Source: Eledone cirrhosa
Taxonomy: Eukaryota
Direction: 5' to 3'
Assembly: GCA_964016885.1 (NCBI GenBank)
Contig: OZ024745.1
Span: forward strand, 79,794,001 to 79,858,000
DNA length: 64,000 nucleotides
Below, piece after piece: positions 11,896-61,939 of this stretch. The notes below the pieces were generated by a model, which saw only the letters and a list, made by a program, of their open reading frames with translations, did no database searches and was not told where the DNA came from. Each line of letters begins with the position of its first letter. Position 1 is the first letter of the stretch. The position numbers and the translations under genes are program-made.

Positions 11896-12074
11896 GGAAC
11901 AAGTAAGACCCCAACGGCTGAGCTCAAGCCGTTTCGACAGCGAATTAGCCGTCGAAACGGCTTGAGCTCAGCCGTCGGGGTCTTACTTGCTCCTATTACC
12001 CACTCTACTACCCTAAGTATTGAGTACTTTGGTGCGTTATGGTCCACCTGGTTCCTTACCACATTTCCTTCGTT
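11896..12074 (+). mobile_element. Short hairpin PLE-terminus element (family H1, copy 1) with the 3' half of an HHR
   Basis: Inverted repeat 11893-11996 plus unique tail, (TA)n on both sides. Contains GAAAC-ggcttgagctcagcc-GTC. Homologous to 12932-13074 and 61739-61939. Confidence 0.75.
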
Positions 12075-12740
12075 ATATATATATATATATATATATATAT
12101 ATATATATATTGGGAGGGGCGTGGCGTATAGAGAAAAGGTGGTGGCGAATAATTAAAAGAAAGGGTAGCGAAAAAATGGAAGAGAATGCGATGTAAATAT
12201 AGAAGAGACATTTCGAAAACAACAACGAAAAAATGTCCATAAAAAATTGACACTCCCTTCAAAAAACCAAATGTTAAAAAACCAGAAACTAGAGTTATCA
12301 TCGACTTGATTGCATGTTGCAGCGTGTACTTAAACGACGACAGAAATATTAATGATGGACGATAAGGGAAGCTAAATATATGTGTCAATATAATTAATCT
12401 TACTACATAGTTTCAAGTTGATGCAGATTGTATTGTTTTCTACTATTTAGATAACAGTCATCTTTTCTCATTGGTCAACAATTGTTCATTTGCTATCACG
12501 TTTGTGGTGGAGAAAACTAATATTGGTTGAATACAAGTATAACATTCTGTTGAAGTCAGATACTGTAAACTATCTCTCTCTCTCTCTCTCTCTCTCTCTC
12601 TCTCTCTCTCTCTCTCTCTCTCTCTCTATATATATATATATATATATATATATATATATATATATATATATATATATGTATAGAGAGAGAGAGAGAGAGG
12701 GGATATATATATATATATATATATATATATAGAGAGAGAG

Positions 12741-12910
12741 AGGTAGAACACTGGAAGGTAATATCCGTAGTGGTAGAGCACTCAGTCCATGGGACGAGTT
12801 TGGTAGATGTAGTAACAACAGTTAGTTCACCATACCGAGAATAATTGTTTCACCTTATGATAAGGTGAAACAATTGTTCTCGGTATGGTGAACTAACTGT
12901 TGTTACTACT
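12741..12910 (-). mobile_element. Short hairpin PLE-terminus element (family H2) with the 3' half of an HHR
   Basis: Near-perfect inverted repeat 12808-12909 centred on caccttatgataaggtg, followed by GAAAC-aatt-GTT. Flanked by microsatellites. Confidence 0.65.
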
Positions 12911-12931
12911 TTTATATATATATATATATAT

Positions 12932-13074
12932 AGGAACCAGTAAGACCCCGACGGCAGAGCTCAAGCCGTTTCGACGGCTAATTACTGGTTCCTATTACCC
13001 ACTCTAAATACCCTAAGTATTGAGTATTTTGGTGCGTTATGGTCCACCTGGTTCCTTACCACATTTCCTTCGTT
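12932..13074 (+). mobile_element. Family H1 copy 2 (right arm largely deleted)
   Basis: Near-identical tail to 11996-12074, (TA)n flanks. Confidence 0.75.
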
Positions 13075-13230
13075 ATATATATATACATATATATATAAGC
13101 AAAGAGATATTTAATTTGTTGGTTATTCAACAAATTTATTTATAACAGATTCGAAGCACTCTACAAGTTTCCTGGAGTATAATATCAATGATATTAATAA
13201 ATGGAAACTATATTTATAAAACCATATTTA

Positions 13231-13287
13231 TTTTATTATATATATTTCAAGGGTACCAACATTTTGGTACGCTCTCATCAGATAACA
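13231..13287 (-). ncRNA. Minimal hammerhead ribozyme in a PLE terminus (about 13098-13330)
   Basis: ttat-CTGATGA-gagcgtacc...ggtaccctt-GAAA-tatat-ATA-ataa. Same type as 24063, 42168 and 47427. Confidence 0.7.
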
Positions 13288-14109
13288 TAAATGAGATAAT
13301 TCAGCAACTCGCTATAAATGATATATACATATGGGGTCATGCATGTATATATTATCTCATTTATGTTTCACATGGAATTTTACAAATATTTTAGCAGGTT
13401 GGTATGTTTACGAAACGGGGTTCCTGGCTTGTAAACTGAAGTAACGCCCATACCTCACCTTTTCCCAGAGCAATCTCATTTACATCATACTTCTTATCCC
13501 TAAATATATATCTCGAGTAGCAGCTCACCGCTGTTGAAAAGCAGGGGCACTCTATAATCAAGAGTCTCATTAGGTTATGATGAATTAGCGGGGAGAGGTC
13601 CAATAGATTTAGCAGGAACATCTGATTGACATGAAATCTCTCACAAATACACTCCAGCCCCTAACCCACAGATGTTATCTTCTCTCTTCTTTTTAGTTTT
13701 CTACTGTTACTACTGTGGTCTATCTTCCTCGGGGCTGGCTGGTCTAGTATCTCCTCCACTCCTCCACTTAGGTGCTATTCTTTCACTCGTCATTCCGCCT
13801 CTCGTAAACAATATAGTATTCGTTCCACATCCCATAATCCCCATTAACCCCTACGTCTAGTCCTTTCTCCTCGGATCATCGGTTCTCTAGAAACCCTCTA
13901 CTACCCAAATTTTCAACCAGCCATCAACTTTTGAACAAGATCAGTGTATATTGTATTGTTCCCACTGTTGTATTTCAGTATTGAGGGCCTCTTAATATCA
14001 TGAGCCACGTCTTCCCCATATGTGTGTGTGTGTGTGTGTGTGTGTGTGTGTGTGTGTGTGTGTGTGTGTGTGTGTGTGTGTGTGTGTGTGTGTGTGTGTG
14101 TGTGTGTGT

Positions 14110-14586
14110 GTCGGGTCGTCGGCGATTAAACCAGCAACTCCACCAAGCTTGCTTGGTGAGGAGGGGGAATTTGGACACCCTGCGGGATGAAAAACAAAAC
14201 CCGTCAAAGGACGGAGTCAATGGCCATCCAATAAAGTTTTTTCTTTTTGTGGAGCGAGAGACTCAGTCTTCATTAAGACATCTCTCTAGGAGAAGGTCAC
14301 TATGATATAAAACCTGCGACTTGGCTTCCATCCAATAATGTAGATCAGTCCTTCTTTTTGGACAAATTCATTTGATGTTCAGAGAATGTGATTGGCCTCG
14401 TGCAAAGCCTTTCATCGCTTAAAAAAGCTTCAAAATACAGACATCGCTTGATATGTGACATTCATTGCGATGCATGGCATTGCTGGCCATGGGTAAGTCC
14501 ATAGAAGGACAAAAAAGCCACGTCTGTGATACTCATGCTTAAGTATCAAGCAGTGGTATTACTCGAAATCGTGTTGCAGCCATCAT
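14110..14586 (+). mobile_element. Non-autonomous RTE-derived element, copy 1
   Basis: Homologous to 14609-15150 and 15748-16355. Ends in tactcgaaatcgtgttgcagccatcat. Confidence 0.6.
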
Positions 14587-59320: not shown

Positions 59321-59330
59321 ATATATATAT

Positions 59331-60180
59331 AGTAGAAAAATCGAGAATCGGAATATCAGCTCACGAAATCACGATAAACAATATCCGATATGTGTGGCAG
59401 AGGGCTCAATAATTTGGATAAATCAGAGCTATAACTATCGTTAAAATACCAACATATAGAGATCATGCCTAAAATCACCCGTGCAGCCGAAAAGGAACGA
59501 CCAGGAAGATTCTGGTCACTCAAATAAAATATCAATAAATTAATAAATTAAATGAATGTAAAAAACTCACCCGGACCCGCTAGAAAGATGTTAAATCTAG
59601 CTTCTTGGGTTTCTGCAATTCCTAAATCCAATCACTATCAGCCCACATAAAAAATATATAAGACTTCTAGAGAAGGGATGAACGCGGAAAGGCTTCATCA
59701 ACGAGTATTTCGTCCAATAATATAGTGGGGACCCAAAGCCGAAAACGCACATGGTATTCAGCAAGGGAGGGAACCCCTATATTAGCGAAAGAATTCGGTG
59801 ATGTGTAAATTATGTAAGAATACACATTATCACATATCGAATCAGAGTGCTCAACAGACGTGTTAAAATAAACAAGAGCTATTCATCAGTCAATAAGATC
59901 AACAAAAAATCATCAATAAAATTAACTGGTCAATAGCTAAGGTCTAGAGCTAAATATAGTAGAATAATCGAGAATCGGAATATCAGCCCACGAAATCACG
60001 ATAAACAATATCCGATATGTGTGGCAGAGGGCTCAATAATTTGGATAAATCAGAGCTATAACTATCATTAAAATACCAACACATAGAGATCATGCCTAAA
60101 ATCACCTGTGCAGACGAAAAAGAACGACCAGGAAGATTCTGGTCACTCAAATAAAATATCAATAAATTAATAAATTAAAT
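59331..60180 (-). repeat. (TA)n-flanked partial tandem, period 627 bp (223-bp direct repeats)
   Basis: 59331-59553 is repeated at 59958-60180. Confidence 0.85.
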
Positions 60181-60296
60181 ATATATATATATATATATAT
60201 ATATATATATATATATATATATATATATATATATATATATATATATATATATATATATATATATATATATATATATATATATATATATATATATAT

Positions 60297-60975
60297 AATA
60301 GCTTATTTTAGTTATTGCTCGCACCAACGTGAGGTATATGATTTTTAATGCGATGAAATACCAATGATCGTTGGCAAATCACTGATGAGGGACTAATTTT
60401 ATAATATGTAATCCATGTGCAACCATGCAGTATTCTTCTCCCCTTATTTTTCATATATTTACCTAAACTGCGATTACTTGTTTCTCTCTTTCTCTCTTAC
60501 TGCTCCCTCGTTCTCTCTGTTTCTCTTACTTTCTTTCGTCTCCTCTGTCAGTTAACACTTTCTCTCGACTGACCTCTTCCTCGCACTTCCGCTCACTCAC
60601 TCTCTGTTTCTCCCCTTCTCACTTCCTCCCGTTCGCTAGGAGTCGGATTCCTTCTTTCTCACATCCCATTCACAGCGAAAGGTCTGTTTGCTAAGCGCTT
60701 ATGAATTCACCCAGCTTATACTGATCGAATAACCATGTTGCTTGTTTTTCTTCCCATCTTCGGTTAGCTTTTCCTTGTTGTTTACTTGTCTCACTCGCTT
60801 TACGCGTTTCACTTGTCCCAATAGCTTATTTTAGTTATTGCTCGCACCAACGTGAGGTATATGGTTTTTAATGCGATGAAATACCAATGATCGTTGGCAA
60901 ATCACTGATGAGGGACTAATTTTATAATATGTAATCCATGTGCAACCATGCAGTATTCTTCTCCCCATATTTTAT
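60297..60975. repeat. (TA)n-flanked partial tandem, period 523 bp (about 155-bp direct repeats)
   Basis: 60297-60452 is repeated at 60820-60975. Confidence 0.85.
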
Positions 60976-60984
60976 ATATATATA

Positions 60985-61695
60985 GGTAAGTTATTCAGGG
61001 TTGAATCGGAGGTAACCACAGTAAGTAAGGTACTCAATACATAGCAGCGTATAAAAGTTTTAATATAGATGAGATTCTACAGGACTAGAACTGTTTCATT
61101 CTTTAGAAATCATCAGGAATCTGGCTTTCCAAAAAATAAATGTATTGGTATTTATATCTTTTCAGGTGGTAGGAGAGGGTGGGAAGTGGGATGGGTGGAG
61201 GTCATTGGTTGAAAGAAAAGGCTAATTCTTTAAAAGCTAAAGTCTATAGTTTATATTTAGAGTGACAAAGGCAGAAAGGATTCTATAAACAGGTTTAGAA
61301 TGGAATGTCACTCCTAATTTTTAAGTTTCTCTTAAGCTAACAATGCCTATATTTCAGGTGCCTATAAGGTGGTTGTGGGTCGGTCATGGTTGATGGATTT
61401 AAAGAAAAGGGAAATTCTTTAAAAGCTAATTCTTTAAAGCTCTACTTAGAGTGACAAAGGCCAAGATAATTCTATAGACCAGTTCAAAATATTGGGTGTC
61501 TATATTGGGTGTCCATCTAAAAAAAAAAAAAAAAATAAATAAATAAAATAAATAAAATAAAAAGAAAGTTATCTAACTTAAAAATAAGGAGTGACACCCC
61601 ATTCTGAACCTGTTTATAGAATCCTTTCTGCCTTTGTCACTCTAAATATAAACTATAGACTTAAAGAATTAGCTTTTAATGAATTCCCTTTTCAA
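60985..61695 (-). mobile_element. PLE-terminus element with an HHR and an internal inverted repeat
   Basis: About 61210-61327 is inverted at 61575-61695. (TA)n flanks. Confidence 0.65.
61072..61122 (-). ncRNA. Type I hammerhead ribozyme
   Basis: agattc-CTGATGA-tttctaaagaat-GAAACAG-ttctagtc-CT-GTA-gaatct. All three stems pair. Confidence 0.8.
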
Positions 61696-61738
61696 TATAT
61701 ATATATATATATATATATATATATATATATATATATAT

Positions 61739-61939
61739 AACGGAAGAAATGTGGTAAGGAACCAGGTGGACCATAACGCACCAAAGTACTCAATACTTAG
61801 GGTAGTAGAGTTGGTAATAGGAACGAGTATGACCCCGACGGCTGAGCTCAAGCCGTTTCGACGGCTAATTCTGAGTCCAGAATTAGCCGTCGAAACGGCT
61901 TGAGCTCAGCCGTCGGGGTCGGGGTCCTACTCGTTCCTA
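61739..61939 (-). mobile_element. Family H1 copy 3 (most complete hairpin)
   Basis: Inverted repeat 61818-61940 centred on ctgagtccag, (TA)n flanks. Confidence 0.8.

Follow-up and report, generated by a model that had tools for sequence, protein, structure and literature searches.

Inverted units with half a hammerhead ribozyme in Eledone cirrhosa: likely Penelope-like derivatives that may join two separately primed cDNAs

How the inverted ends of Penelope-like elements (PLEs) arise, and what role their hammerhead ribozymes play, are stated open questions (PMC8557442; this source, PMC3846280, PMC4209133, PMC8969392, PMC11371274, PMC13282606, and bioRxiv 10.64898/2026.07.22.740005 are cited throughout for parts of their text). 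Three short repeats, here called H1, raise both questions in a 64,000-nucleotide (nt) stretch of Eledone cirrhosa DNA (contig OZ024745.1, positions 79,794,001 to 79,858,000; "the window", whose first letter is position 1). Each H1 copy joins two inverted arms and contains half a hammerhead, and an earlier note on this DNA had proposed that complementary DNA (cDNA), folded back on stem II of the ribozyme itself, primes its own second strand. The reading we prefer, with somewhat better than even confidence, is that H1 units are 5'-truncated pseudo-long terminal repeat (pLTR) ends of a PLE, formed by way of two separately primed cDNAs and not by fold-back on a ribozyme stem.

The three related H1 units lie at 11894-12075, 12931-13075, and 61739-61940 (copies 1, 2, and 3) and are 145-202 nt long; none contains an open reading frame (ORF) of 120 aa. 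All three are flanked on both sides by (TA)n, inside which a target-site duplication is unreadable. In each, an inverted, 5'-truncated copy is joined head-to-head, and a tail of about 80 nt extends beyond one arm only before (TA)n begins. On the strand that reads GAAAC, the shared part of each copy ends GTTCCTAT, from which one arm runs on into the tail; the short-arm end, ATAGGAAC/(TA)n, is common to all three copies.

The 5' extents of the arms were counted from the G of GAAAC. In copy 1, the inverted tail-less arm (11894..11941, minus strand) reaches 6 nt 5' of GAAAC and has GTT at the GTC site. The tail-bearing arm (11942..11996, plus strand) begins 12 nt 5' of GAAAC and carries the half-hammerhead GAAAC-helix III-GTC-GGGGTC; its tail of about 80 nt (11997..12075, plus strand) holds an ACTC..GAGTAC motif at 12002-12027 and ends in (TA)n. 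In copy 2, the inverted tail-less arm (12931..12983, minus strand) reaches 11 nt 5' of GAAAC and contains the sole half-hammerhead of that copy. The tail-bearing arm (12982..13075, plus strand) consists of the tail and a 14-nt stub of the shared part that starts 3' of the half-hammerhead, which this arm lacks entirely; the arms correspond over just these 14 nt and overlap by 2 nt (TT) at the junction. In copy 3, the tail (61739..61816, minus strand; ACTC..GAGTAC motif at 61786-61811) adjoins a tail-bearing arm (61817..61873, minus strand) that begins 14 nt 5' of GAAAC, and the inverted tail-less arm (61874..61940, plus strand) begins 18 nt 5' of GAAAC and has a 6-nt duplication at the GTC/GGGGTC site. 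Copy 1 sits within (TA)n at the right end of a mariner-type remnant (10913-11895) with inverted ends of about 150 bp, a deleted transposase, and helix-turn-helix matches.

The palindrome centres differ among all three copies. The inversions therefore arose independently and are not one amplified palindrome, and on this point the earlier note was right. The tail-less arm also holds sequence that is absent from the tail-bearing arm: 40 nt in copy 2 and 4 nt in copy 3. The latter (AGTC, an apparent loop) are the next four family bases upstream and match the consensus in three of the four sequencing runs described below. Because a copy cannot hold sequence absent from its template, the tail-less arms of copies 2 and 3 are not simple copies of the tail-bearing arms; lacking the tail, they cannot have been the template for the tail-bearing arms either.

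At least one strand of each copy reads GAAAC-GGCT-TGAGCTC-(A/T)GCC-GTC-GGGGTC. H1 thus carries GAAA, a helix III of 6 bp, and a UH cleavage triplet, which is only the 3' half of a hammerhead; CTGANGA is absent from either strand of all three copies. This had been noticed before, and we confirm it for both strands. With a 6-bp helix III the pattern occurred in 28 of 5000 dinucleotide shuffles, and with 4 bp in 428 of 5000; the half-hammerhead of H1 exceeds chance. Helix III is a near-perfect palindrome, and palindromic helices III have been described for PLE hammerheads (PMC4209133). None of the 13 core letters falls among the 36 variable positions listed for the family in reads (P about 0.01), which makes a functional parent ribozyme plausible. 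The predicted lowest-energy RNA fold of H1 favours a competing AGCCGU-CGAA-ACGGCU hairpin over helix III, and predicted folds of single arms were no stabler than those of shuffled sequences (z from -0.77 to 0.30 for six stretches). At 61831-61866, identical 3' strands flank GAAAC and GTC (AGCCGTC occurs twice), so that either helix III or the competing hairpin is possible; the antisense of this stretch reads GACCCC-GACGGC, that is, both 5' strands of a full hammerhead without the intervening CUGANGA. H1 is an incomplete ribozyme that is not tied to a coding parent.

One arm (61740-61877) was used as query against four (X1, X4, X7, and X15) of 17 listed public sequencing runs. It matched 15328 contigs in X1, 22483 reads in X15, and only 3 and 2 records in X4 and X7, respectively. 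The H1 family is very abundant in organism A; run X1 may be related to the source of the window and does not count as independent evidence. In the reads, (TA)n abuts two fixed 3' ends that lie about 70-80 nt from each other. In X15 the tail end is represented by 6812 + 2352 reads and the tail-less end by 3591 reads, so that the common ATAGGAAC/(TA)n junction, which the earlier note had reported for the three copies, is a property of the family. Loose ends at 61746/61750 and at 61817, followed by (TA)n, occur in both X1 and X15.

Upstream of the arm, past 61873, the family consensus in X1, X15, and X4 is GACTAAAT (antisense) and not the mirror arm of copy 3. Copy 3 continues AGTCCAG at this place; relative to the previous bin, about 1.6% of the depth in X1 and 0.5% in X15 follows this sequence, in part because of an edge effect. 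Beyond 61873, the single X7 contig agrees with copy 3 over 3 nt, possibly by chance, and diverges thereafter. After GACTAAAT the consensus dissolves into unrelated AT-rich sequence (agreement 0.49-0.51 in X1 and X15), and shared family sequence is lost about 22 nt 5' of GAAAC; in sense, the boundary reads TTTAG-TCCAGAATT. This common sequence stops 8 nt beyond 61873, at (A)TTTAG|TC in sense, a site that resembles a splice acceptor. The main consensus contains no helix II complement within these next 8 nt, and the 30-nt loose-end consensuses listed contain no CTGANGA complement. A second H1 subfamily has a different upstream sequence, and the second consensus (loose end at 61867) could fold into a short bulged hairpin.

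Eight opposite-strand joints were found in the reads. Seven of them link an end at 61867-61873 to scattered partners at 61778-61840, and the eighth (61836/61856, four reads) lies in helix III. Read joints also cluster at 61873, immediately after a GTC triplet. Tandem H1 is hinted at only once, by a go-back joint in a single X1 contig.

The tail provides a connection to other elements in the window. The motif ACTC-N10-22-GAGTRC has eight matches, against 1.16 expected, a number reached in none of 100 shuffles; seven of the eight had been seen when the motif was defined, and only the match at 58096 is new. The matches (12002, 12778, 13156, 24161, 42085, 43878, 58096, and 61786) belong to six PLE-like families including H1: two are in the tails of H1, and the remaining six fall within tails, or stretches that look like tails, of five further PLE-like families. 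In the cases checked, the motif begins 5-11 nt past the tail-less end. GTATTGAGTAC, moreover, is common to the tails of H1 and of a unit with a complete hammerhead core (unit 61116), at similar spacing. The common motif ties H1 to the PLE-like units of the window, and its form suggests a recognition hairpin, a candidate reverse transcriptase (RT) or endonuclease signal. Judged from sequence, the H1 units are likely PLE-derived. The PLE origin assumed in the earlier note agrees with the layout and the motifs; a parent with an ORF or CTGANGA was not found, in a weak search.

We compared H1 with eight other units with hammerhead features, taken from 31 inverted-repeat rows. Simple repeats, copies resembling short interspersed nuclear elements (SINEs), mariner ends, and cross-matches between dispersed copies were excluded, as were the repeats at 15065, 49142, 51216, 51533, and 61215/61404, on whose arms no core was recognised. 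Seven of the eight units carry the whole core on both arms. Beyond the core's 5' end, their inverted arms continue for about 21 (26486), 40 (41722), 53 (23869), 58 (5571), 157 (58251), 214 (24250), and 345 (43904) nt. Arm lengths across inverted units range from about 48 to 450 nt; given the ribozyme's position close to the 3' end, the shortest ones necessarily stop within it.

Two of these units repeat the arm-specific pattern seen in H1. PLE unit 24250 (24250..26533, plus strand) has a full hammerhead core in both arms and an ORF with RT and GIY-YIG domains (24704-25885). The ORF is on the tail-less arm, and a tail of about 45 nt is on the short inverted arm. Unit 43904 has the same arrangement, its ORF being on the tail-less arm and its tail on the short one. 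With ORF and tail on opposite arms, neither arm can simply copy the other. At 43820-47538, the inverted arms are about 450 bp long, 36 nt separate CTGACGA from GAAA, and the ORF is frameshifted. For the ORFs of unit 43904, Pfam gave no relevant match (no RT) and BLASTP no link to the RT at 21627; five homologues were found, and among the three scanned there was one weak GIY-YIG match (E 0.0087). The unit is likely a PLE.

On the reading that we prefer, a trans-acting PLE protein, probably a dimer, would nick both strands of an AT-rich target. One cDNA would be primed at the tail start site and the other at its tail-less counterpart, from the same RNA or from sibling RNAs. Both cDNAs would halt at or before the usual 5' limit of the family, and the head-to-head joining of their 3' ends would involve 0-2 nt of microhomology. 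The turn would then fall near the position of stem II because the shared sequence of the family runs out there. Several observations lead us to this reading: the layout is the published PLE layout (PMC8557442, PMC3846280), the two 3' ends are fixed while the inner joints are scattered (seven of eight) and the junctions overlap by 0-2 nt, and arm-specific sequence occurs in two H1 copies (2 and 3) as well as in units 24250 and 43904. A PLE protein, predicted to be dimeric, cuts and extends both target strands in vitro, and its two start sites on the RNA bracket the tail (PMC11167929).

Other points weigh against this reading. A parent with an ORF or CTGANGA was not found, and PLE membership rests on layout and motifs. 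The link between two-strand extension and inverted pLTRs is ours; it is not made in the parts of PMC11167929 cited here. Copy 1 and units 58251 and 5571 are compatible with either two cDNAs or a snap-back. Two of the three H1 copies and the 12809 family turn nearly symmetrically, at most 18 nt from GAAAC. Palindromes are prone to asymmetric central deletion, and fold-back followed by deletion could leave arm-specific sequence. Hairpins are poorly represented in short-read data. In X15, 7126 molecules terminate at AATT in the arm (61870), joints were seen in 109 of 22483 reads, and the symmetric joints listed number zero; these reads cannot count symmetric turns. The loose ends (median 19-22 nt, at most 30 nt) are too short to exclude a natural hairpin beyond the 8-nt consensus.

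How closely the two arms agree bears on two-ended priming and on snap-back alike. The arms differ at 3 of 49 positions in copy 1, 0 of 14 in copy 2, and 1 of 57 in copy 3, which also has the 6-nt duplication. Identity between arms is thus incomplete. Copies differ from one another at 3-4 of 49-55 positions, as many as separate copy 1's own arms; two of the three differences in copy 1 are CpG transitions and may post-date insertion. At the ggaacNagta site the three copies carry A, C, and G, and the arms are concordant in all three, as had been noted. These bases are common alleles of a family polymorphism (about 44% A, 17% C, and 39% G in X15), so that a different base in each of the three copies is no surprise (P about 0.17). 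Concordance of the arms in all three copies has P of about 0.02-0.03 under independent draws. Both arms of an H1 copy share a template lineage, which is expected both from snap-back and from two-ended priming on one RNA.

The strongest alternative, which we regard as possible but clearly the less probable account, is a snap-back that needs no RNA structure: a truncated cDNA would prime itself through microhomology or non-templated bases, be cut or joined at the tail-less site, and have its centre trimmed later. Such a process accommodates the concordant arms at the polymorphic site and fits copy 1, whose tail-bearing arm extends 6 nt further. R2 proteins give documented snap-back 5' junctions (PMC11371274), and the PLE tail has previously been ascribed to endonuclease resolution (PMC8557442). 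However, copies 2 and 3, like units 24250 and 43904, would require an extra deletion. No 3'-terminal primer of at least 4 bp is present at any of the three H1 junctions, where the overlaps are 0, 2, and 0 nt. The arms of copy 3 differ at 61830 (T and G, both common alleles), although this site lies beside the 6-nt duplication and the two may be one local event. A larger palindrome that later suffered a deletion could give arm-specific sequence, and this keeps structure-independent snap-back alive.

A rather unlikely variant is that H1 is a very abundant non-autonomous PLE unit of about 145 nt, whose template has a fixed 5' limit within the hammerhead and so bears the substrate half of the ribozyme alone. 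Folding or processing of the ribozyme would then determine where cDNA stops and where it turns, possibly on a natural hairpin just upstream of the sequence seen here. If this were true, the form of the inserted DNA would depend on the hammerhead region in two families at least (H1 and 12809).

Improbable, to our minds, is self-priming on antisense RNA, which has been proposed for rotifer Penelope elements and yields a head-to-head palindrome. It was inferred in print from abundant palindromes at inverted junctions (PMC3846280), and several palindromic units are present in the window; in vitro, however, initiation takes place on sense RNA at the tail boundaries (PMC11167929), and antisense priming alone leaves the two fixed 3' ends and the scattered inner junctions unexplained.

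Still less credence goes to snap-back on hammerhead stem II, or on a natural hairpin just upstream of it, with self-priming of the second strand. In favour of this model, the turn in copies 1 and 3 and in the 12809 family lies 5-18 nt 5' of GAAAC, and the conserved core letters make a functional parent ribozyme plausible. The palindrome at 12809-12909 turns 5 nt 5' of GAAAC; it has no known parent and is the best point in favour of the stem II model. The eighth read joint (61836/61856) matches a fold-back on a natural hairpin, though that hairpin is helix III. The hairpin on which the proposal was built, gacggctaattctg..cagaattagccgtc with its 14-bp stem, is found only in copy 3, where it is the palindrome centre; copy 1 has a 6-bp arm with one mismatch, and copy 2 has no hairpin there. 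To place it at stem II is circular: the apparent 5' strand of helix II in H1 is the mirror arm, and the pairing extends across the complement of GAAAC. A single parent can offer just one stem II, and snap-back on it would retain the parent's loop and 5' strand, so the centres should match each other and the parent. This is not so: each copy has a centre of its own, and the family reads GACTAAAT where copy 3 has its mirror arm, with only about 0.5-1.6% of the depth following copy 3 past 61874. With DNA folding parameters, the cDNA ends at the junctions of copies 1 and 3 are predicted to be unpaired. Close to the turn, the best natural primer has 6 bp (stop at 61866, copy from 61850); its use would delete GAAAC from the second arm, and it is seen in none of the three copies and none of the eight joints.

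Outside H1, seven of the eight other units retain the full core on both arms and run 21-345 nt past its 5' end, so that stem II cannot be the general cause of inverted PLE termini. Catalytically dead hammerheads leave in vitro insertion normal, though those mutants keep stem II (PMC11167929). Nor is a second, DNA-level role for the hammerhead fold supported, since it is not at a genuine ribozyme stem that the arms turn. The literature searched, mostly judged by titles and the beginnings of abstracts, contains no description of fold-back at hammerhead stem II in PLEs; the stem II version would be new, but it is unsupported here.

A palindromic miniature inverted-repeat transposable element with arms homogenised by gene conversion would account for short, TA-flanked, high-copy units with inverted arms, but it is largely refuted, and we give it next to no weight: the inverted repeat is terminal at one end only, with the tail of about 80 nt outside one arm, the three centres differ and there is no constant internal structure, copy 1's arms differ at 3 of 49 positions, and H1 carries a half-hammerhead as well as a tail motif common to PLE-like units.

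An inverted truncated copy with a one-sided tail is a standard feature of PLEs (PMC8557442, PMC8969392), and self-priming at palindromic inverted junctions was proposed in 2013 (PMC3846280). The inverted pLTRs and tails of PLEs with an endonuclease (EN+) resemble H1 in the head-to-head truncated inverted copy, the tail at one end, the AT-rich or (TA)n target, the palindrome at the junction, and hammerhead sequence in the repeat, which in H1 is the 3' half only (PMC8557442, PMC3846280). H1 differs in having no ORF, in the truncation of both arms inside the hammerhead, and in a tail of about 80 versus 30-40 nt. An autonomous EN+ PLE was rejected as an identification for H1, since units of 145-202 nt contain no ORF of 120 aa. 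Minimal type I PLE hammerheads share with H1 the order GAAA-helix III-UH and a palindromic helix III/loop 3; in pLTRs they occur as opposite-strand motif pairs 100-700 bp apart, with many solitary truncated motifs (PMC4209133). Unlike these, H1 has no CUGANGA, no independent 5' strand of helix I or II, and a long helix III (6 bp). R2 snap-back 5' junctions likewise involve a cDNA-primed antisense copy and a ribozyme-bearing retroelement template, but R2 copies end at variable internal places (PMC11371274), whereas the second arm of H1 ends at one fixed site. Non-LTR retrozymes are, like H1, short non-coding PLE-related units with type I hammerhead sequence, but they are direct tandem repeats with complete ribozymes, whereas H1 is dispersed, inverted, and incomplete (bioRxiv 10.64898/2026.07.22.740005). 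As H1 copies are single inverted pairs without CUGANGA and not direct tandems, this identification was rejected too. The main text of an octopus repeat survey, in the parts cited, has no mention of palindrome, hairpin, or ribozyme (PMC13282606).

H1 arms start at fixed sites and overlap. In the twin priming of L1, which Ostertag and Kazazian reportedly described in 2001, two cDNAs from both target ends give an inverted piece and a low-homology junction; in contrast to H1, the second L1 primer is said to anneal internally at a site that is arbitrary, and the 3' end is not duplicated on the two arms.

The window is animal-type DNA with many microsatellites, which dominated the output of the repeat finder, and many retroelements. 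In a Pfam scan, RT and GIY-YIG domains were found in at least two Penelope-like ORFs, at 24704-25885 and 21143-23498; the PLE ORFs of the window have no DNA similarity to H1. The second ORF has a CX4CX2C motif before its GIY-YIG domain, which we take to be Neptune-like, and adjoins a palindromic pLTR with 143-bp arms (21143-24250). An Rfam scan of the window, with E up to 1, gave 143 matches, none to a hammerhead and none at gathering score. Exact-pattern scans of metagenome contigs, viral contigs, and prokaryote genomes were blank; these are non-animal collections and hence uninformative about an H1 parent.

The remaining units lie close to H1 or recall parts of it. The 12809 family has an H1-like layout (12760..12909, left boundary approximate) with arms of about 48 bp and a tail on the left that holds an ACTC..GAGTGC motif; this unit has a minimal palindromic helix III (CAATTG) and directly adjoins H1 copy 2. 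Unit 61116 (60990..61130, boundaries approximate, minus strand) has a complete CTGATGA..GAAAC core, a long helix III, and the tail with GTATTGAGTAC mentioned above; at 61000-61700 it is accompanied by rearranged direct and inverted upstream pieces and adjoins H1 copy 3. The palindromic unit at 41722-41969 has a hammerhead-like fold with CAGAAGA instead of CTGANGA as the first box on both arms. An old palindrome at 51216-51493 (77% arm identity) has TTTAGTC about 11 nt before GAAA, like the H1 upstream consensus; a short natural hairpin precedes TTTAGTC, and CTGANGA is absent. A dispersed SINE-like family occurs at 6525, 8809, 18274, 27585, 27773, 31458, 34366, 35156, 36087, and 36494; these repeats presumably resemble octopus ones.

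H1 is a new, abundant, non-coding family with the known inverted layout of PLEs. Snap-back on stem II would have answered both PLE questions, that of the inverted ends and that of the role of the hammerhead, but the data do not support it. H1 can serve as a test set because its units are short, present in very high copy number, and have two fixed 3' ends and readable junctions; a genome-wide tally of which H1 arm extends further 5' would separate two-ended priming from snap-back. The part worth following is the 5' boundary of the family sequence inside the hammerhead.

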